DNA of 64,000 bases, taken from Escherichia coli. GTDB lineage: Bacteria; Pseudomonadota; Gammaproteobacteria; Enterobacterales; Enterobacteriaceae. Below the pieces are notes generated by a model, which searched no databases, was not told the origin of the DNA, and worked only from the letters and a program-made list of their open reading frames with translations. Location: the NCBI RefSeq assembly GCF_002854065.1, contig NZ_CP024147.1; one strand, written 5' to 3'. A program made the position numbers and the translations under genes. This document shows positions 5,298-49,094 of the stretch, piece by piece. Within the stretch, counting starts at the first letter, position 1; each line of letters begins with the position of its first letter.

Positions 5298-7471
<2,174 letters not shown>

Positions 7472-38767: not shown

Positions 38768-39247
38768 TCACGAAGATAATGATCGTATGGCTTCCTTAAG
38801 GGCTGGTGAGACACGTTGATTAAGTGCTTCATTAGCCCAGTCGGATTGCACGGGTATTCTACGCAATATCACTGTGTTTAAAGCAGCAAACAAACGATGC
38901 AGTAAATGTATAGAACCGGTCGCGATAGCTGTATCCACCCACTGGTCCGCATAGAGCCATGGGGCTGAAAATAAATCAGCCATCGCCTGAGTAGCAACTT
39001 CAATAGACGCTTTTTCTAGGCAAAGAACATCACCCTGATCGCCAAAATTATGCTCAAAGTAAGGCAATCCTTCTATATTCGTGCGAATTAGAGGAAATGG
39101 GCAGCGCCCAATGCTCAGTAAAATATAGGCGTCTATACGCTGATCATCGTCACCCACCTCTGCTGACGGCAGTTTCGCTAGTTGCCCGAGTATCATCCAA
39201 CTGGTTGATTTAGAAATGACCTTTGGGATTTGATCCTCTAAATTCAC
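38768..39247 (-). CDS. Hypothetical 159-aa protein, downstream partner of the nuclease-NTPase gene
   Basis: Track ORF (GTG start) 69 nt after the stop of 39317..40696, same strand. No family recognised. Confidence 0.55.
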   Translation of the reverse strand: MNLEDQIPKVISKSTSWMILGQLAKLPSAEVGDDDQRIDAYILLSIGRCPFPLIRTNIEGLPYFEHNFGDQGDVLCLEKASIEVATQAMADLFSAPWLYADQWVDTAIATGSIHLLHRLFAALNTVILRRIPVQSDWANEALNQRVSPALKEAIRSLSS

Positions 39248-39316
39248 CAGAATACTCTTTGCATCATCCCCGTGTTTAGAAATCCACGCTAATCCATCCT
39301 CAATCTTTAGATTGAC

Positions 39317-41128
39317 TTATTGGTTGTCTGGCATAGCTAAAGTAAACAATCCGTTTTTTATAGGTTCTTTATATGGCTCAATGCTGAGAAGGCCCTGAAT
39401 AATTCCAAAGCTGAAATATCTCTCTTTAGCTGCCATACGGCGTATGGCTTGAGCACCGATCATATCTCCAAGATAAGTGGCGTCTAGCCGTTCGCCAAGC
39501 CAAGCCCCGGCGTCTTGAGGGTCTTGTTCTGCCCGTAAAACCAGTTCATCACAAACAGCATCCGACAGTTCCAGAAGGTAAGCTGCGGGAACTGTCGGCA
39601 CCACAACATCTTCCCATCCTGAAAGGCGAAAAATACGAACTGCCCCCATATGTTTTAACTCATTCACTACACCACGAGCTTCGTCAGAAAGTGCGTCATA
39701 CCGCACGACAAATCCATTCGCTTTAGCAAACATTAATTCTACTGAGTGGGAGTTTGTGTCAGCTAGTGCGCAGCGTGCAAGAACCCGATAATAACGAAGA
39801 AGATCATACTGACTCTCATAGCTCTTTTGCGCAGCATCTATAAGTTCCATACCGGGTGATGGAGGAAGATAGGCGATAAGATCCGTTTTCTGGTATTGAT
39901 GATTGCGCACAATGTCATCATAAATAGTGCGAAGAACCCAAGGCGAGCGGTAGTCATCGGCGTATTCTGCTCCCTGTTGAAAAACTATCCGCTGGTCCGA
40001 GAGAATCTGTTGCGCCAGCTTAAATTCATCTAGGGACATAGGCGATGTTTTAAATACCTTCGACCGGCTACCAATTGCAGACGGAGTTCGTCCGTTTGGA
40101 TTTTTCAGTAACGCGTTGGCATGATAGGTCGTCAGAACAACCACCAGCCTGTTGCCAAAACGTATACCCGCAAGTTCCTCAAGATCAGTAGCCATTTGGG
40201 AGCCTGGTTCAACGTCGTCGATAGCAAGCATAAGCGATGGACCTTCAGTGCAGTTAGACATTCGTCTTAACCAGTTACGTGCATCATTTGAGGTTAAATT
40301 CCATTCAAATTCAGCTGCAAAAAGATTGGCCAGAGCCTGAAATAGTCCTGGTCCGGAACCTCGTAACATCAGGACAGCCAAAAGATCGCTACTTTCCGTT
40401 TTTAGCGAAATTTCACGGAGGCAACTGCTTTTTCCGCTTTGTGCATCACCCTCAATGATAGTGAAAGCTGTACCCATCACAGCAGATTCAATTACAAGAG
40501 ACGTGATTTTGCGAGGAAAAAGTAGGTTGTTGGCAAATGGATGTTCTGAATGCCCAGGCTGATCAGTTATATCAATCAGCAGCCGGGCTGTTTCTTCTCG
40601 CACAGCTGGCACCCAAGCATTAGTTTCTCGCCCCATCAAGGCTTCAATAGCCCAGCGCATGTCAGCCGCCGCCAACTTTGCAGAATTGGCGAGCATCTTG
40701 TTTACCGCTGCCGAGGCATCCTGTCCACCCGACCACTGTTGTCCATTACTTGAGTCATAAACGCGCGTATCTTTACCGTTCGTAACTACAACGAGAGGCG
40801 GACGTGGTGTTAACTGGTTAGCGTAGCTTTAAGCCTGTTCATAATCATCATGGGTCAGTGTCAGGTCTTCACGTTTCAGTTCAATAACCGCAAGTGGTCT
40901 CTCCCGATGAAAGATCAAAACATCCGCTCGCCCGTATTTTTTCCAGTGTGCGGCGCTATCTATTTTGTAAGTTCCATGGCCTAGCCGAACGGTAAAATGG
41001 CGCTGTTCGATAAGATCTTCGCGAGGAATGTTAGGAAATGCTATGTTTAGTGCTGAAGTAAGCCGGCTTTCTAGCTCGGCTTCAGTTCGAACGAGTGGAG
41101 AGCCCGTTTTTGATTGCATACTTTTCAT
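39317..41128 (-). pseudogene. PD-(D/E)xK (HsdR-N/Mrr-like) nuclease domain fused to a STAND/AAA+-like P-loop NTPase, interrupted by one in-frame TAA (40829-40831)
   Basis: Track ORFs 40829..41128 and 39317..40696 are in the same frame. The 44 codons between them are open (SYANQLTPRPPLVVVTNGKDTRVYDSSNGQQWSGGQDASAAVNK). Motifs: D-x12-ELK (GRADVLIFHRERPLAVIELK), Walker A GDAQSGKS (40427-40450), Walker B LMLAIDDVEP. Good RBS (gagga) before the ATG at 41128. Confidence 0.75.
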
Positions 41129-41771: not shown

Positions 41772-42788
41772 TTACTCGATGCCCAGAACAAATGACATTA
41801 ACAAATCTAGCTTTATTTTCATGTCTGCAGTTGCCGAAGCCGCATTAACCTGCGGCAAGGCAAGCCATCTGTTTACGGCATCGGAGTTGAATCTCTGCTG
41901 CCTTAGGAACGAAGATACCGACGTTTCCCAGGAAAAGATTTCACCCCCACAAAGTTCGACGGGCTGCTGAGAGCAGGCTCGCTGAATAGTCATTCCCAAA
42001 CCGACGTAGCGGAGAAGCTCACGTCGCACATTCTCATCTTTTTGCATGACTGGTGCATCCAGTTTCGGTTTCGGTCCAAAGTACACTCCGGTAGTACCTG
42101 GTTGTAATGTCGGGTCACTGGAAAAATAAACCGGAACTCCCATCAATTTAAATGCCGCTGTCAAAATTTCATAACTAATGTCTGATCGACTCCAACGGCC
42201 CATGTGGGGTGGTACTTTTGGCAAACCGACCAGATCATCGCCACGGCTTACAATCGATACCCCCTCAACTGGCACGGATGGTTGCATTCTGAATACAGCG
42301 TCAGAATCGATTTCCCAGCCAGCTTCGCTTAACAATCGCAAAAAATTACCAGCAGCCACGCACGATGATTCACTCCACTCAACACAACCGATGCGCAGCT
42401 TGTCCCGCTGACCGAACTGTCCTGTTCGAAATAATTCGAGGTATCTGTCGCGATTGGAACTATTAACGGCATATGCATCAATCACAGTAGGCGGTACAGG
42501 TTTACTTGCAGATTCAGGATTTTGTTGAAGCAAATCTGGGCTTATGAAAAACACTATAGCGAAGATCGCCACTGCGCCAGATGCTCTTAACCACCCATTA
42601 AATTTTACTTCAAGGAAACCAGGCAGAACTGCACCAATACATCCGGCAGCCAGAGCCAGAACTATTCGGTAAACTATATATTGATAAGGTGTGGGATTGG
42701 GGGTTGTGATAGTAGTAATGAGTATGGCAACTATCGCCACAACCGCAAAACCATACCTAATGAACTTGTCTGTCCTTACACTGCTCAT
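41772..42788 (-). CDS. Hypothetical membrane protein (three N-terminal TM helices plus ~240-aa soluble domain)
   Basis: 338-aa ORF. Hydrophobic stretches FAVVAIVAILITTITT, IVYRIVLALAAGCIGAVLPGF and ASGAVAIFAIVFFI. No family recognised. Confidence 0.6.
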   Translation of the reverse strand: MSSVRTDKFIRYGFAVVAIVAILITTITTPNPTPYQYIVYRIVLALAAGCIGAVLPGFLEVKFNGWLRASGAVAIFAIVFFISPDLLQQNPESASKPVPPTVIDAYAVNSSNRDRYLELFRTGQFGQRDKLRIGCVEWSESSCVAAGNFLRLLSEAGWEIDSDAVFRMQPSVPVEGVSIVSRGDDLVGLPKVPPHMGRWSRSDISYEILTAAFKLMGVPVYFSSDPTLQPGTTGVYFGPKPKLDAPVMQKDENVRRELLRYVGLGMTIQRACSQQPVELCGGEIFSWETSVSSFLRQQRFNSDAVNRWLALPQVNAASATADMKIKLDLLMSFVLGIE

Positions 42789-43091
42789 TTTAATTTTGAC
42801 ACCTGAATCAAGTCCATAAGTCGAAAATCCCGCATTAAACTGTTCCCCAATGATTAATACAGCTTTATACGCGTAATGAGGCTATTGGCGTTGGTGATGA
42901 GTGTAACTGTCCATTCCTCGCTCAGAGCAACCTTCTGCTCCAAGAGTCAGTCTACAGTGTGCAAAAAACAGACGTTGATCACAATATCGAGTTAATCATT
43001 CGGCCGTTTATCACTCCCATTGAAAAATTTCTCAGTATCCAATATACCAATGTTGAGGGCTTCCCTCTTACATCTCAAAAGGATAACTATC

Positions 43092-43220
43092 ATGGGTCTT
43101 AAACCTGGTCCAAAACCAATTGCTAAATCGACAGGAAAACCAGATCAACGCCGACGAGATAATAAAGATACTCCTGGCAACACTCCGGGACTAAAGCCAA
43201 GTAAGTCCACCGGGAAGTAA
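43092..43220 (+). CDS. Possible 42-aa basic Pro/Lys/Gly-rich peptide with an internal repeat
   Basis: ATG at 43092 preceded by aaggat. Reads MGLKPGPKPIAKSTGKPDQRRRDNKDTPGNTPGLKPSKSTGK; GLKP...KSTGK occurs twice. This is the shorter, ATG-initiated version of track ORF 43020..43220. Confidence 0.3.
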   Translation: MGLKPGPKPIAKSTGKPDQRRRDNKDTPGNTPGLKPSKSTGK

Positions 43221-43256
43221 AAAAATCAGGGTATAAATAAGTTATTTATACCCTGA
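43218..43256 (-). terminator. Intrinsic terminator of the three-gene helicase operon
   Basis: 15-nt perfect inverted repeat tcagggtataaataa/ttatttataccctga, followed on the minus strand by ttttttt. It sits 14 nt after the helicase stop. Confidence 0.85.
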
Positions 43257-43269
43257 CTACATATCCAGT

Positions 43270-45468
43270 CTACTGAAGGTGTTTCTGCAGCCAGGTGCAC
43301 GTTCCTTCTATATCATACGCCTGTGCCCCATACCCTTTAGCAAGCAAAGTCTCTGGTAAATACTCGTCATATTTATCCAGATACTTGTCAGGAACAACTG
43401 CAGCAAGCTCAAACTCTGAAGGTAACCCCGACAATAGCATTTTCTTAAGTACACGCTGGACAGAGGCAACGCCTGAGTCCTCTACCTCTATCACACCTGC
43501 AAATGAACTGGCTTTAAAGCCACAACGTATAAGCAGGGACGTAATTGTATTGACAATTTTATCCCCCATCCACGGGATCACGTAGCAGTTCTGACCACTG
43601 GCAATAAAACAGTCATTGTGTAGATTGTAGCGTTGGAAGTTGTCACTTCCTTCCGCAAAGAGGCTTCTGGCTGCGGCATCAGCATAATCGACTCTCTTGT
43701 TGCCTACCGCGATACGGTAATCATTTTCCCTGTAGATAGCGAGCATCTCCTGGCGAACAACATCATGAACAGACATCCCGCTACCACTGAATAGTGGTGG
43801 CTGACCGCCTTTAGTCGCCTCAACATAGATAACCTTTTTTTCAACCTCGATCTCTGTCACTTTCCAGCGCCGTCCGCCGAAGATGATGTGCTGCTCCGGC
43901 AAAAGTGGGGAGTCTACAGGCACTGTGCCAAGAGTTCGGTTTCCCGTTACAATGCGAAACTCCTCAGGTGTATTGAATACGGCATAAAACGTGTAGTGAT
44001 TAGTCAGCTTCTCCCCCTCAGCCCCGACAACTATTTCACCGCTGGCTAGTTGACTGAGCAGGCCACATGTCCCCATATGTTTAAGCAGACTTTTAAAGTC
44101 ATTTATATCCACATTCCGGAACGGACCTGTCTGGCAAAGTTGTGACCAGAGTTGATCGGCACGAACACCTCCCCATTGCGCAGTAATAGCCAGGATCTGG
44201 TGTAGTAGTGTGGAGTAATGTTTCTGCCGGATATCTGCAGGCTCGAACCAGCGCTTAGAGATCATCAACCTGATCATTGCCATCGCCTGAACCAACTGCA
44301 GCCGTAAATGATCCACAATGCTGCTGGTTGCGGTAAGTTCAGGTTCAGTAATTAACATTCTCAGCACCGATGGGGAATCGCGCCGCCCTGAACGTCCCAT
44401 GCGTTGACGCAGACTGGAAACAGAATGCGGAGGTGTCACTTGTATGACAGACTGCACCTTACCAATATCAATACCCAGCTCCAGCGTCATTGTACAAACA
44501 GCGGTTGTGGGCAAATTCCCTTTCTGCAGTCGGGCTTCAAGCGCCTCACGTAACTCCCTGGCAAGGGAGCCATGATGAGGAAAGAATTCATTAGGAACGA
44601 CATTTGCTTCACACATGTCGCTCAGTATTGCCGCTATGCTTTCAGTACGCTTTCGACTGTTAGCAAAGACCAGGTGGGAATCGCCACGACAGAGCCTGAA
44701 AATATCCGCGCAGACGAGCTGTTCAGCAGAGCTCTGGAGCTCTTCCCCTTTTTCGAGCACCCGCTCAAGATAACCTTTAACCTGAACTTGTAGTGTAGCG
44801 GTGCTATTACTGTCTGTTACCGTTTCACAAGGTAATCTCTTATCCGGACGCAATAATTCTGGCACTTTTTCCAGCTCTCCCAGAGTGGCACTCAACGCGA
44901 CACGGGGAACTGGATTTAACTGGCGTCCCAGCACATGGTCAATTCTATTAAGCAGCGAAAGCAGTTGTATACCACGCTCTGAGCCAATAAAAGCGTGGAA
45001 CTCATCAATAACAATGTATGCCACTGAAGAAAACGCCTGTTTGAGCCAACCCAATGAGTTTATGAGCAAAGACTCAAGTGATTCAGGTGTGATAAGTAAG
45101 ATACCTGACGGGCTTGTCCGTGCTTTATTCTTTTTGCTTTGTGGTACATCCCCGTGCCAGGGCGTCACTTGCATTTCCAGGGCTTCCCCCAGGCTCTCAA
45201 GACGACGGTGCTGATCGTTAATCAATGCCTTCAACGGACTGATATAGATAATGCCAAATCCACCAGTGAGATCTGCAATCGCTGAACAGGCAGGAAGAAA
45301 GAAAGCCTCTGTTTTACCCGCAGCTGTACCTGCACTAATTAGTACATCACGATCACGGGCTAAAATTGCCGGAATAGAGCTCTCCTGCAAGGGCCTTAAT
45401 GATGACCAGCCCTGCTTATAAATCCACTTACGGACACGGGGATCGAGACTATTGTAGGCACTGCTCAT
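43270..45468 (-). CDS. sngC: DEAD/DEAH-box (Lhr-like SF2) helicase, Shango SngC-like
   Basis: 732-aa ORF. Q-motif LRPLQ, motif I AGTAAGKTEA, Ia SPLKALINDQ, II DEFH, III SAT, VI QRMGRSGRR, plus a ~300-aa C-terminal extension. Its ATG overlaps the stop of the upstream ATPase gene (ATGA). Confidence 0.85.
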   Translation of the reverse strand: MSSAYNSLDPRVRKWIYKQGWSSLRPLQESSIPAILARDRDVLISAGTAAGKTEAFFLPACSAIADLTGGFGIIYISPLKALINDQHRRLESLGEALEMQVTPWHGDVPQSKKNKARTSPSGILLITPESLESLLINSLGWLKQAFSSVAYIVIDEFHAFIGSERGIQLLSLLNRIDHVLGRQLNPVPRVALSATLGELEKVPELLRPDKRLPCETVTDSNSTATLQVQVKGYLERVLEKGEELQSSAEQLVCADIFRLCRGDSHLVFANSRKRTESIAAILSDMCEANVVPNEFFPHHGSLARELREALEARLQKGNLPTTAVCTMTLELGIDIGKVQSVIQVTPPHSVSSLRQRMGRSGRRDSPSVLRMLITEPELTATSSIVDHLRLQLVQAMAMIRLMISKRWFEPADIRQKHYSTLLHQILAITAQWGGVRADQLWSQLCQTGPFRNVDINDFKSLLKHMGTCGLLSQLASGEIVVGAEGEKLTNHYTFYAVFNTPEEFRIVTGNRTLGTVPVDSPLLPEQHIIFGGRRWKVTEIEVEKKVIYVEATKGGQPPLFSGSGMSVHDVVRQEMLAIYRENDYRIAVGNKRVDYADAAARSLFAEGSDNFQRYNLHNDCFIASGQNCYVIPWMGDKIVNTITSLLIRCGFKASSFAGVIEVEDSGVASVQRVLKKMLLSGLPSEFELAAVVPDKYLDKYDEYLPETLLAKGYGAQAYDIEGTCTWLQKHLQ

Positions 45469-46781
45469 AGTCTGAAATTCGCCAGGCCATCATCGTCATC
45501 ACTTTCCTCCACAATGGCATCCCCCATATCGCTGGGCTTGTCTTCTTCAATCGCCACCCCCTCAATGAGAGCTTGCCAGTTCATCGTACTGTTTTGTTCC
45601 AGCACAGCCAGCATATCCAGAAAACCTTTTATGGTATTGCGGGGAGTTCGAAAGTAAGCATCTCCGATGGTTTTGCTGCAGTGATGCAGAAACCCGGTCA
45701 GAGCCTCATCTGGCACCAGATAATTTGCGGGATCTCCACCAGCATAAACATGACGAAGATTTTTCAGTAAAATATACAGTTCCTCAGGAGTGAGGCTGGC
45801 AAGATGTAGCGTGGGAGACGAGTAGTCAATCACGCCAGCTTTCTGTGCGAATCGATTTTCTGCCAGACGCGACTGGAGCGCTTCATAGCTGTAGAGCCCC
45901 TTACGTGGATCGAAAAGAAACTCTGGCGTCCCCCCGAGGATAAAACCAATATTTTCGGCGGAGCCTTGCAGGCAGTCATTCAGGATCCGCAAAATTTGTT
46001 CGTAGTTGGCCGTTCTCGCTTGCGTATTATTCAACTTGAAGAGGTTCACCATCTCGTCGAGGCTAACTAAAAGTCCGGCATAGCCTGCCTGACGGACAAA
46101 AAGGCTCATCAACTTCAAAGAGTCATAGAACGAGGCGTCTGAGATAATCGTTCGGACGTCAAGATCATTACGGGCATCAGTTTTTGTGGTGTACTCGCCC
46201 CGCAACCAGCGAATAGCATTGGATTTTAAGGTTTCGTTATCCTGCTCATGCCCGCGCCAGAATGCGTCAATGACCTTCGCAAAGTCATATCCACCCACCA
46301 TATCTGACAAAGCAGCAAGGCGTTTATGAATAACGGATGAGACCTGGGAGCCGTTCGCATCAGCTTCCTTCCTTGCCTCAGTAACAAACCTTTCCACAAC
46401 GCTAAGTAATGCATTGCCATCTGGTTTGTTTCTGGTGGACATATTTTTCATAAGCTCTGAGTAGAGATTACGAGCCTGACCTCCCGATGAGTGAATACGT
46501 CTGTCGGGAGAAAGGTCTGCACTGACCGTGACCAGCTTTTTCTCTAACGCAATAGACCGTACAACACTTAAAAAGAACGTTTTGCCGGAACCATACTCAC
46601 CAATGATAAGTCTGAAGCTTGCCCCGCCATCAGCAATCCGTTCAATATCCTGATGGAGGGCGGTTATCTCATTCACGCGGCCAACCTGGATATGCTGAAT
46701 ACCTATCCTTGGCGTTACTCCCGACTTAAGTGACTGAATAATAGCGTCGCGCTCTTTCACTCTTATACGTGTTACAGACAT
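45465..46781 (-). CDS. sngB: DUF2791/BrxD-like P-loop ATPase, Shango SngB-like
   Basis: 438-aa ORF. Walker A GEYGSGKTF, Walker B GLLVSLDEM, acidic C-terminal tail. Confidence 0.8.
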   Translation of the reverse strand: MSVTRIRVKERDAIIQSLKSGVTPRIGIQHIQVGRVNEITALHQDIERIADGGASFRLIIGEYGSGKTFFLSVVRSIALEKKLVTVSADLSPDRRIHSSGGQARNLYSELMKNMSTRNKPDGNALLSVVERFVTEARKEADANGSQVSSVIHKRLAALSDMVGGYDFAKVIDAFWRGHEQDNETLKSNAIRWLRGEYTTKTDARNDLDVRTIISDASFYDSLKLMSLFVRQAGYAGLLVSLDEMVNLFKLNNTQARTANYEQILRILNDCLQGSAENIGFILGGTPEFLFDPRKGLYSYEALQSRLAENRFAQKAGVIDYSSPTLHLASLTPEELYILLKNLRHVYAGGDPANYLVPDEALTGFLHHCSKTIGDAYFRTPRNTIKGFLDMLAVLEQNSTMNWQALIEGVAIEEDKPSDMGDAIVEESDDDDGLANFRL

Positions 46782-46784
46782 TCA

Positions 46785-49094
46785 CTAACCCTCTAATTCT
46801 TTGGCTATTTCCAGGTCAACCCAAATGTGATCATCAGCATCTTCCAGCACTGGTGCATCAACCACCGCATAGGACCAATCGTTAATCACCTCAAGCGCAC
46901 CGCCGAGCATCAGGTTCCAGTTACTACACAACTCTGTCGCCTCTTTTCTGGACCATTGTTCTTTCTCCAGCAACCTGCGATAAAGTTGGCTATGAGCGGA
47001 GTCAAGCCCCCCTTCCCCGGTTAATGAGGCTGGAGCGCTTTCTGGTTGTTCTGGTTCTTCTTCAGTGAAAATCGAGTTCAGTAATTTACGAACATCATCA
47101 GTGGCAGATTCGTGGCGGGCAAGTACATTGGCATCCAGCGTAAACCCTGCCGTCGACTGATTAGCTGGTACAGATGAAACGAGAGCAGTTTCAGTTACGG
47201 AATGCTGATGGATATTGCTTGATACGGATGAGGGATCCAACCCCAGGCTTGTATAAATCTTCTCAAGCTGTTTGATTTCGGCAGGCGTAATTCTGCCGTC
47301 AGAGCAAGCGACACTAACGATAACCTTACCCACAGCTGATTTTTCCGCTGCACCGAGTAACTCAATCCGGCTTTTCATTCCCGTCATATTCGCCGGGGTA
47401 TGAAGCTGCCACGTTAAATATGCGTGCAGAGAGCGCTTTTCATCATCGCTGAAGCTGACATTGTTGTTGATGGCATTCTCAAGCACTTTCTGTTCGGCTT
47501 GATCGAAAGAATTGTCAATCAAGGCGACTACCGAACCTAATCGGAGCGTCAATACAGCTGTGATAAATTCAGGAGAAGGAGAGAAGCGGCCACTTTCACC
47601 AGCAGGGAATAAAACAAGAACACCATCGACATCTGCTTTTACGTGGTGGTAATAGGGGTCAGGAGCCAGGCAGTACCCCATTTTCTGTGCAAAGGCCTGC
47701 ATCAAGTCGGCCTCTTTTTTGTTGATCTTTGCCGGACAGGTAGCATTCATGTGTGACCAGAAGTCAGCAACTGAAACTACTCCCCCCTTACTGAGGATCG
47801 CGTCATCAGCCCAGCGTTTGAATGCACTTAATATTTTATCTGCGCTTTCGTTAACGATTTCTGAAGGCAGCAACAAAATTGCAACGGTATCATTTGCTGA
47901 AGTGCCTTTTCTACCAAGGTAACGACTGTAAGCATCCAGTTCATCTGTGCATATATCAGCAAGAGTCATAAGCTTCTGAACAGGGCCTTTCAATGCACTT
48001 GGATCAGGCAAGTCAGGAACAGGAAGCCGAATACCTCTCAAACTGGGACTTGCAGGCGTGTAATCTAAACGCAGACGCGCTTTATTCGGCTTCACTACCA
48101 TCCCTTCACCGTATTTAAGGGTGTAACGCCGTTTAAATAGTGCAGCAAATTCTTTCGCACAGCGGCGGGCGGGGGTTCGTAATGAGTATTCAGTATGGTT
48201 TGTCACCCACGTCAGAGCCAGATCCGCTGGAACCGGGGCTCCTGCATCAACTGTCTTTGCCAGGATTAACCTGAACTGCATGCTATTGCTGAACTCTGAA
48301 TCATCGCTGAGAGCTGCTGCAAGATTTTCGTTCGGACGAAGAATGGACATCGCTTCAAGTAACTGGGACGAGTAGTTCCGGAATGATCTGTTTTCATTGA
48401 AAACAGATCTGAGACGGCAGATCTCTTTGAAAAGAGAATAGAACTCATCGTCAGATATATTGCTGTCCCTGCTGTCAACAAGCGCCCGTCTTTCCAGACC
48501 ATACAGATAAATAAAAACGTAACCAATTGGGCAAGAAGTGTCACATCTGTCGCTGGTAAGCCAACTCAGGTACGCGCCACGTGCTTCAGGTGAAAGTGAG
48601 GAATAACTGGGCCAATACCCTAATGAACTATCTTCGTAGATGTAAGATGTGGGGTATATCTTGAGCGTGTCGTCAATTAGCGATGCCTCGCTACTATCAT
48701 CATAATAACCGCCTGAGTTATGCCCGACAGGGTTCATTCGCTGTCCAAGATAGAAGTAGCCGCCGGTAATCTCTACCCCACCGACTGTGATCACCTCCCC
48801 CGGTAAAATCCAGCGAGCCAAAGCACCGGTAGTTTTTGAGAAATTCTGGCGTTGAGTGGCTGTTATACTGTATTCGGCATTCCGCCCGCCACTTAGTGTA
48901 AACGTAGCCAGATTGTCATCTTCGCTGTCCTCGTTGTGCATTACAGACTGATTTTTTTTGTTATTAGCAAGCCATTCTTTAGGTGGTGCTTTCACAGGAG
49001 CGGAAGTATAAGAGCCCGCGGACTTAGTTTTCTTCTTTTTGAAAAAAAGAATATAAATCAAATAAATCGCTACTATAAATATCCATAACTCCAT
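46785..49094 (-). CDS. sngA: Membrane-anchored TerB-domain protein (TerB-N / TerB / TerB-C-like), Shango SngA-like
   Basis: 769-aa ORF. N-terminal TM anchor ELWIFIVAIYLIYILFF followed by KKKK. The C-terminal half has paired TerB-like helices (IDNSFDQAEQKVLENAI...; ACSDGRITPAEIKQLEKIYTSLGL). 3-nt gap to the next gene. Confidence 0.75.
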   Translation of the reverse strand: MELWIFIVAIYLIYILFFKKKKTKSAGSYTSAPVKAPPKEWLANNKKNQSVMHNEDSEDDNLATFTLSGGRNAEYSITATQRQNFSKTTGALARWILPGEVITVGGVEITGGYFYLGQRMNPVGHNSGGYYDDSSEASLIDDTLKIYPTSYIYEDSSLGYWPSYSSLSPEARGAYLSWLTSDRCDTSCPIGYVFIYLYGLERRALVDSRDSNISDDEFYSLFKEICRLRSVFNENRSFRNYSSQLLEAMSILRPNENLAAALSDDSEFSNSMQFRLILAKTVDAGAPVPADLALTWVTNHTEYSLRTPARRCAKEFAALFKRRYTLKYGEGMVVKPNKARLRLDYTPASPSLRGIRLPVPDLPDPSALKGPVQKLMTLADICTDELDAYSRYLGRKGTSANDTVAILLLPSEIVNESADKILSAFKRWADDAILSKGGVVSVADFWSHMNATCPAKINKKEADLMQAFAQKMGYCLAPDPYYHHVKADVDGVLVLFPAGESGRFSPSPEFITAVLTLRLGSVVALIDNSFDQAEQKVLENAINNNVSFSDDEKRSLHAYLTWQLHTPANMTGMKSRIELLGAAEKSAVGKVIVSVACSDGRITPAEIKQLEKIYTSLGLDPSSVSSNIHQHSVTETALVSSVPANQSTAGFTLDANVLARHESATDDVRKLLNSIFTEEEPEQPESAPASLTGEGGLDSAHSQLYRRLLEKEQWSRKEATELCSNWNLMLGGALEVINDWSYAVVDAPVLEDADDHIWVDLEIAKELEG

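Follow-up and report, generated by a model that had tools for sequence, protein, structure and literature searches.

Sra/RpsV (45 amino acids, aa) and RMF (55 aa) are small basic proteins associated with the ribosome; they are encoded on the chromosome, restricted to particular lineages and regulated by stress. Oncocin, Bac7 and apidaecin are host-defence peptides secreted by eukaryotes, which contain PRP repeats and bind the ribosomal exit tunnel or DnaK. A system of another kind, Shango, protects bacteria against phages by means of three genes, coding for a TerB-domain protein, an ATPase and a helicase (10.1101/2022.05.11.491447, 10.1101/2022.11.11.516204); the three genes of Pseudomonas aeruginosa PA14, cloned with their native promoter and flanking region, were protective (10.1101/2022.11.11.516204). 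The subject of the present analysis is a 42-codon open reading frame (ORF) found beside a Shango locus in a stretch of 64,000 nucleotides of Escherichia coli DNA (RefSeq assembly GCF_002854065.1, contig NZ_CP024147.1), hereafter the window, which is a genomic island adjoining a tRNA-Arg gene and yfdC. Genome annotation systematically overlooks small proteins; the small gene studied here is either un-annotated or mis-annotated in RefSeq.

Conservation of the small ORF

A sequence-only reading of the window had pointed to a possible 42-aa peptide starting from an ATG with an acceptable Shine-Dalgarno (SD) sequence, with a chance ORF as the other option, and had proposed that synonymous and nonsynonymous changes and the conservation of the frame be compared in related islands. 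The ORF is found exactly where it had been placed, with an ATG at 43092-43094, a TAA at 43218-43220 and 42 codons:

43092..43220 (stop included), + strand: small ORF, coding sequence of the 42-aa protein MGLKPGPKPIAKSTGKPDQRRRDNKDTPGNTPGLKPSKSTGK, assigned by sequence reading and comparative evidence
43079-43084, + strand: Shine-Dalgarno AAGGAT, with 8 nt separating AGGA from the ATG

The mere existence of such an ORF proves nothing, since 69 ORFs of 30 aa or more occur in or across the surrounding 6.5 kb; this abundance, and the fact that RefSeq is blank at the small ORF in genomes carrying the window-type allele, would both suit a chance ORF in an intergenic spacer. Against this option stands the distribution of the variation, which falls nearly all at third codon positions. 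In a set of 86 distinct nucleotide alleles from alpha-, beta- and gamma-proteobacteria, Leptospira and Bacteroidota, column entropy is 8.3, 6.6 and 47.6 at codon positions 1, 2 and 3, respectively (36 codons, 85 alleles), and the mean pairwise synonymous difference (pS) is 0.71, i.e., saturated, versus a nonsynonymous difference (pN) of 0.075. Between the window and E. coli ESY001, codons 2-36 show 8 synonymous and 0 nonsynonymous differences, and the whole ORF shows 10 and 0 when counted by eye in the alignment. The GC content of third positions (GC3) ranges from 6 to 83% and tracks that of the host locus (rho 0.48, p 1e-5); at the first two positions together (GC1+2) it is steady at 51-61%. 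The other five frames are open in just 0-15 of the 86 alleles, and for this reason antisense and shifted frames were rejected as the true coding frame.

The signals for translation are also kept: the start codon is ATG in 84 of the 86 alleles, GTG in one and disrupted in one; an SD-like tetramer is found 4-20 nt 5' of the start in 82; and the protein has a length of 40-47 aa in nearly all of them, while the sequence 5' of the ATG is unrelated between lineages. Variation confined to third positions, together with the conserved start, SD and stop and an amino acid identity of 83-100% across phyla at saturated synonymous sites, indicates that the ORF is not a product of chance, an option whose probability is practically nil. 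The pattern is the signature of a translated protein that has been resident, and has ameliorated, in many lineages; indeed, the comparison proposed by the earlier reading decides for a translated gene. Thus, on comparative grounds, the plus-strand ORF at 43092..43220 truly codes for a protein, and the purifying selection acting on it is very strong.

Escherichia ruysiae carries a second copy (L017 10001-10126), whose ATG is 1 nt out of frame and which has a P5L change; no other allele of the 86 appears decayed.

Nineteen residues, all within the first 36, are invariant in the protein alignment: M1, K4, P5, G6, P7, K8, I10, A11, T14, G15, D18, R20, R22, D23, N24, K25, T27, N30 and K35. All of them are present in the window peptide, which agrees with the family consensus and combines it with an ATG, an SD and purifying selection. 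From residue 1, the consensus reads M-x-[LI]-KPGPKPIAKSTGKPDQRRRDNK-x-TPGNTP-x-LKPSKS, and after it comes a tail rich in lysine. The repeat that had been noticed at both ends of the peptide is real in this allele, where GLKPGPKPIAKSTGK (residues 2-16) is echoed by GLKPSKSTGK (residues 33-42), but it does not describe the family: only xLKPGPK and xLKPSK are kept family-wide, and the second STGK is found in the enteric clade only.

The 107-aa annotation

In the islands of strains ESY001 and S88, the 42 residues form the C-terminus of a 107-aa "hypothetical protein" annotated in RefSeq (WP_001564033.1 and WP_015953064.1), whose coding sequence covers the small gene (L002 5939-6262, L003 5939-6262). 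Among complete E. coli genomes, RefSeq annotates this long ORF on the 92%-identical allele and nothing on the allele of the window type, the best-matching one in 246 complete records of the species. The annotation introduces another explanation, namely that the small ORF is the 3' remnant of a 107-aa gene, 5'-truncated and frameshifted in the window and consequently a pseudogene fragment. Two features of the window agree with it, besides the shared C-terminus: homology to the ESY001 and S88 islands starts only at about 42958, between the small ORF and the neighbouring membrane-protein-like gene, and a 1-nt indel just 5' of the ATG closes the 107-aa frame, the small gene being intact.

However, when the 107-aa protein is used as query, the 149 proteins retrieved (Vibrio, Pseudomonas, Xanthomonas, Klebsiella, Raoultella and many metagenomes) have in common only the 42-residue segment, always starting at its Met, and the extensions that flank this segment up- or downstream are mutually unrelated, as is also the case in Vibrio, Pseudomonas and Xanthomonas. 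The 65 N-terminal residues are neither conserved nor in frame in the homologues, and have no counterpart beyond a narrow enteric clade. In the 86 alleles, the in-frame open stretch 5' of the ATG has a median of 9 codons, and indels that are not multiples of three, which would break the long frame, separate the upstream hairpin from the SD. Between the window and ESY001, the differences 5' of the ATG are mostly nonsynonymous in the long frame (read by eye), whereas downstream they are all synonymous; indeed, the stretch 5' of the ATG reads as a promoter and a 5' untranslated region (UTR), not as coding sequence. The short open stretch, the indels and the unrelated extensions together lead to the conclusion, on this comparison, that the 107-aa call is an artefactual 5' over-extension into promoter and 5' UTR by way of an accidentally open frame. 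The pseudogene remnant was dropped once the homologues proved to share the 42 residues only, and it is given hardly any credit.

The same accident accounts for the uneven annotation, since the other common allele was annotated only because the open frame 5' of its ATG gives the ORF an apparent length of 107 aa. A similar effect is seen in the databases: most of the 149 proteins are about 60 aa or longer, which is taken to mean that it is mainly accidentally extended versions that got called as genes.

Distribution of the family

At least 573 loci are found in a collection with one genome per species, and the 80 best of them, which show 83-100% identity to the window peptide, were used for locus comparisons. 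These 80 belong to Gammaproteobacteria (Enterobacterales, Vibrionales, Alteromonadales, Pseudomonadales, Xanthomonadales), Betaproteobacteria (Burkholderiales, Neisseria) and Alphaproteobacteria (Rhizobiales, Rhodobacterales, Caulobacterales, Sphingomonadales), and also include Leptospira and metagenome-assembled genomes of Bacteroidota. Within E. coli, the small gene is present in 869 of 5,426 complete genomes; it is also found on 1,424 of 72,556 plasmids, 1,009 of which are from Klebsiella and mostly of the IncF type, and the carriers include plasmids of only 5.6-7 kb, on which one copy is annotated as WP_000523570.1. Phages, conversely, hardly ever carry it, with 1 positive among 50,697 phage records and 25 among 2.9 million viral contigs. 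The exact window peptide occurs on at least 1000 contigs in public collections, where it is named only "hypothetical" or "uncharacterized".

An exhaustive phmmer search of 1.84 billion cluster representatives retrieved 176 clusters at 50% identity, all of at most 164 aa; save for chance extensions and one tandem duplicate, all of these matches are members of one family, with no case of the motif sitting inside a larger domain protein. This KPGPKPIAKSTGKPD small-protein family has database entries such as A0A377EA34_ECOLX and WP_000523570.1, all "hypothetical". Searches with the peptide in Pfam (E<=10), NCBIfam and PADLOC gave no match, and PHROGs returned only a non-significant one (E=0.05-0.1) to phrog_6555, of unknown function; a profile search of the PDB with the family and a literature search for sequence strings and accessions were likewise negative. 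No described relatives of the protein family and no precedent for it were found, whereas there is nothing unusual about the gene as mobile cargo or as a cassette.

A divergent paralogue, WP_004218042.1 (MGIKPGPKPIAESTGKEDKRRRVTPENKPKHPGLKEHDHKKGE; L097 6001-6132), is found on Klebsiella IncFIB plasmids, where its gene adjoins htpX, psiE and clpK of a heat-resistance locus, and many Klebsiella plasmids carry two family members. Celerinatantimonas yamalensis has two copies at a distance of 2.7 kb (L018 10001-10126 and 12769-12894), and in the metagenomic protein P0166 two copies are fused in tandem.

A single-gene unit in different packages

In the window, the small ORF is accompanied by the following elements:

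43020..43048, + strand: promoter-like site, with -35 TTGAAA at 43020-43025, a 17-nt spacer and -10 TATACC at 43043-43048
43055..43067, + strand: 5'-UTR stem-loop GAGGG-CUU-CCCUC, present in both the minimum free energy and the centroid folds
42958..43019, + strand: conserved upstream part of the enteric module, containing an inverted repeat of consensus CTCACA-N5/6-TGAG
43224..43258, no strand assigned: perfect palindromic stem-loop of 16 pairs, just 3' of the TAA of the small ORF

The TTGA of the -35 and the TATA of the -10 are conserved columns both in the enteric-module alignment and in a second alignment, and the hairpin at 43055..43067 is predicted to lie at or near the 5' end of the transcript; the small gene is probably transcribed on its own. 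The left edge of the conserved upstream part coincides with the homology breakpoint toward the other types of E. coli island. An Rfam search of positions 42700-43400 matched no family.

The small ORF was described in the sequence-only reading as ending at a palindromic terminator shared with the helicase operon. Its stop does abut the palindrome at 43224..43258; however, the T-run is found on the minus strand, deriving from an A-run at 43219-43225 that overlaps the stop of the small ORF, and for this reason the palindrome is assigned, by consensus, as the intrinsic terminator of the minus-strand helicase (sngC) operon. On the strand of the small ORF no U-tract follows it, and it counts there as a plain 3' stem-loop.

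The same arrangement is found elsewhere. The gammaproteobacterial unit, present in enterics and Vibrio-like organisms, is about 330 bp long and consists of a promoter (-35 TTGAAA, -10 TATAnn), a 5' stem-loop, an SD, the ORF and a 3' stem-loop. In enteric alleles lying in unrelated contexts, homology starts about 135-150 nt 5' of the ATG, and the module has defined boundaries. The 5' hairpin (GAGRG-loop-CYCTC) precedes the ATG by 31-44 nt in 37 of the 86 alleles, in 16 distinct sequences with stems of 5-8 bp, both sides of which vary between lineages; it could be a stabiliser of the mRNA 5' end or a palindromic operator. The 3' hairpin, with compensating changes, also follows the ORF in enteric alleles without Shango. 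In the Vibrio-type block, a second ORF of 49 aa (MDRITSGPRRLSVEEIQELRRDMKESSAWGKAELKRRRDAKNQKN...) lies divergent from the peptide gene (L019 9679-9828, minus strand); it is also present in L020-L023, L027, L030, L038, L040 and L057, and is kept across Vibrio, Photobacterium, Shewanella and Dickeya.

A different package is found in Betaproteobacteria, where at least nine alleles (L046, L047, L049, L050, L054, L065, L066, L067 and L073) are promoterless cassettes bounded by attC: the ATG is preceded, at a distance of 50-60 nt, by a remnant of the GTTAGAA core, and 3' of the stop there is an attC hairpin (TTCTAAC ... GTTAGGC). Two strict automatic attC detectors missed these cassettes, which were recovered by a folding-based check and by inspection. 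The copy of Vibrio vulnificus (L091) is located inside a superintegron-like array, and the island that holds L047 also carries a P4-type integrase and a relaxase. An integron integrase gene (intI) was not seen beside the cassette forms, no search aimed at intI having been made. The small gene travels as a single-gene unit on plasmids, genomic islands and integrons.

Neighbouring genes and the Shango system

The earlier reading correctly placed the small ORF as divergent from a membrane-protein gene, a 338-aa membrane-like ORF at 41772..42788 on the minus strand, from which it is separated by a spacer of 303 nt; on the other side it is convergent with the helicase gene at 43270..45468 (minus strand). 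This last gene is part of a complete Shango system, formed by three genes at 43270-49094 on the minus strand (PADLOC E-values of 7e-277 for SngC, 1e-187 for SngB and 6e-103 for SngA). However, framing the small ORF by these two neighbours is not supported as a functional statement, because homology among islands starts only near 42958, and because tblastn with SngA, SngB and SngC found Shango within 10 kb in just 6 of the 80 species loci. All six are from Enterobacterales and their SngB proteins are 93-97% identical, and they therefore count as a single linkage maintained by descent; the pairing is seen in Kluyvera, Atlantibacter, Buttiauxella, Photorhabdus and Dryocola, and in Enterobacter, where the helicase gene is 3.2 kb away. 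The Shango block is also found with the small gene on IncF plasmids of Klebsiella and Salmonella (L096, L098).

In another locus (L004, about 6313-6432) the small gene is cut short after codon 39 by an insertion of the IS66 family, which takes the place of Shango; this interrupted form is present in three sampled genomes, e.g., CFSAN027346. Farther away in the window, a gene coding for an HsdR N-terminal domain (38768-41128, minus strand) is a single 786-aa coding sequence in strain AMSCJX02 (L001); the window copy has five substitutions, two of which create stop codons, and is probably a pseudogene.

No flanking gene is shared among the 80 loci, as determined by all-against-all clustering of their 4,197 ORFs. 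At 78 loci, the ORFs nearest to the small gene, 145 in all, were assigned to 120 Pfam families, each represented four times at most, and neither the clustering nor the Pfam and PADLOC scans of these neighbours yielded a conserved partner gene. Among the nearest neighbours, defence-type proteins include SngC (4 loci), DarG (2), Ppl (2), GajB, a SAVED effector, HerA, a type IIG restriction-modification enzyme and several PDC candidates; in other contexts AbiJ, AAA_13, BrxR with an E2/ThiF/JAB island, SIR2, toxin-antitoxin loci, integrases and relaxases are found. The units are found among the variable cargo of plasmids, islands and integron arrays, and anti-phage genes are often their neighbours.

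Possible function of the peptide

Taken as a whole, the best explanation, held with high confidence, is a real, mobile small-protein gene; the mechanism of its product is a separate step and is graded as such. The peptide has a mass of 4.4 kDa, an isoelectric point (pI) of 10.8, a net charge of about +8, and contains 17% Pro and 14% Gly; its grand average of hydropathy (GRAVY) is -1.64, the longest hydrophobic run is of 2 residues, and it has no hydrophobic segment and no signal peptide. AlphaFold2, run on the single sequence, predicts coil throughout except for a short helix formed by residues 19-25 (DQRRRDN), so that the peptide is modelled as largely unstructured, in agreement with its previous description as highly basic and probably disordered. 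The sequence-only reading had further suggested that it could bind DNA or RNA or have a regulatory role, which would be only a possible function.

The invariant positions comprise specific residues (Gly, Pro, Asp, Asn, Thr), which points to a specific extended interface, not to a generic effect of charge; indeed, such a constraint on an unstructured 42-mer that has no partner gene suggests a precise contact with something common to very different bacteria. Since the gene moves alone and is near-identical in distant phyla, the partner would be already present, and conserved, in the hosts, and the combination of a polycation, an extended shape and a universal partner leads to the proposal of a nucleic-acid machine. 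The peptide might act in trans, docking in an extended form on a universally conserved, polyanionic machine of the host, of which the ribosome or its rRNA would be the first guess and DNA or RNA polymerase the second; the contact would modulate the host to the benefit of the carrying element. That the peptide docks on such a machine and modulates the host is a tentative proposal. Slightly more speculative still is its specific form, in which a mobile-element effector independent of host range would plug, as an extended polycation, into a universally conserved site such as a channel of the ribosome or of RNA polymerase, or a DNA-processing machine; if this were true, the tuning of translation, transcription or DNA transactions in almost any bacterium would explain the cross-phylum spread.

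Several points weigh against this interpretation. The gene claim stands on sequence comparison; the promoter at 43020-43048 is a consensus reading, which a consensus promoter scan did not list and whose -10 lacks the final T; and some of the non-proteobacterial matches are metagenome-assembled genomes on short contigs, where mis-binning is possible. The neighbour survey used crude ORF calls and had no background control. As to docking, the target is wholly inferred, and searches of Pfam, NCBIfam, PDB, phmmer and PHROGs gave no sequence similarity to ribosome-, DNA- or RNA-binding proteins. The AT-hook motif has an R-G-R-P core; no RGRP is present in the peptide, and no Pfam match at E<=10. Finally, the frequent defence neighbours could point to phage or mobile-element conflict instead.

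This last possibility, in which the peptide would be a stand-alone player in phage and mobile-element conflict, acting as a minimal factor for defence or anti-defence or else regulating the cargo of islands, is the main alternative to docking on a host machine, and is itself considered rather unlikely. Its nearest neighbours and wider contexts are rich in defence genes, the gene is nearly absent from phages, and it occurs as an integron cassette, a format known to carry defence genes. However, this is guilt by association, drawn from cargo hotspots that gather many unrelated genes, and an unstructured 42-aa peptide has no recognisable sensor or effector domain and matches no PADLOC model. A more specific variant, according to which the small gene is an overlooked fourth component or regulator of Shango (SngABC), draws on its convergence with sngC, on the terminator hairpin common to both and on the recurrence of the pairing in other Enterobacterales and on IncF plasmids; co-occurrence led to its rejection, since one linkage by descent in 6 of 80 loci leaves most alleles in unrelated contexts, and Shango has been described as three genes, which were protective when cloned from PA14 with their native promoter and flanking region. 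Consistent co-occurrence across taxa is not observed, and this variant has a very low probability.

A small toxin of the type I toxin-antitoxin style, a cationic antimicrobial-like peptide or a hydrophilin-type stress protectant would agree with a small, self-contained transcription unit carried on mobile elements and adjoining RelE/ParE toxin-antitoxin loci on two small plasmids; moreover, the Gly content and the strong hydrophilicity match the criteria for hydrophilins, and the divergent paralogue lies beside a plasmid heat-resistance locus. Conversely, type I toxins have a hydrophobic membrane-spanning helix, which is not found in the peptide, given its negative GRAVY and hydrophobic runs of at most 2 residues; it also lacks a signal peptide and a conserved export or immunity neighbour, a solitary promoterless cassette is tolerated, and position-specific invariance counts against a purely compositional role such as that of a protectant. 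This group of explanations appears improbable. Even less can be said for a nucleic-acid element, i.e., a small RNA, a recombination site or a cis-acting leader peptide, as the object of conservation, although the ORF is flanked by a 5' hairpin and a 3' palindrome, and by attC in the cassettes: the amino acids stay fixed in spite of saturation at synonymous sites, and Rfam has no match at the locus. A leader peptide would require a co-oriented controlled gene downstream, whereas in the window the stop is followed by a stem-loop and a convergent gene, and neighbours vary in identity and orientation across loci; furthermore, conservation spans the whole peptide from Met1, not just a C-terminal arrest motif. 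These options are left with a probability close to zero.

Docking on a host machine is retained as the preferred, if tentative, proposal. The family is of interest in any case, as it combines near-invariance across several phyla, single-gene mobility and a high prevalence in clinically relevant plasmids; naming the contact made by the peptide, which is short enough for chemical synthesis, could reveal a new way for mobile elements to manipulate their hosts.

Comparison with known systems

Among the described systems, Shango is the closest in position, being the immediate convergent neighbour of the small gene in the window and sharing the terminator hairpin with it; however, the small gene is found without Shango in 74 of the 80 species loci. 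With regard to its packaging, the gene resembles the ORFan cassettes of integrons, since the betaproteobacterial alleles consist of a promoterless single ORF between a core remnant and attC. Conversely, the window copy and the other gammaproteobacterial ones have a promoter-like site, perfect palindromes and no attC cores; an integron cassette would have a 3' attC with R''/R' cores and an imperfect hairpin, a 5' boundary at GTTRRRY and no promoter, whereas the palindrome of the window copy is perfect and without cores. Cross-phylum conservation also gives the impression of being high for the ORF of an integron cassette.

As to the product, the nearest analogies are with the proline-rich peptides and the small ribosome-associated proteins, and they are analogies of size and composition only. 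Like oncocin, Bac7 and apidaecin, the peptide is short, cationic, proline-rich, and probably extended and unstructured; differently from them, it is bacterial and would be intracellular, having no signal sequence and no PRP repeats. Sra/RpsV and RMF are similar to it in size, strong positive charge and the lack of a globular fold, and they bind a universally conserved machine without a dedicated partner gene, as is proposed here for the peptide. However, there is no detectable sequence similarity with them, as phmmer retrieved only the family itself, and the present gene is mobile cargo shared across phyla.

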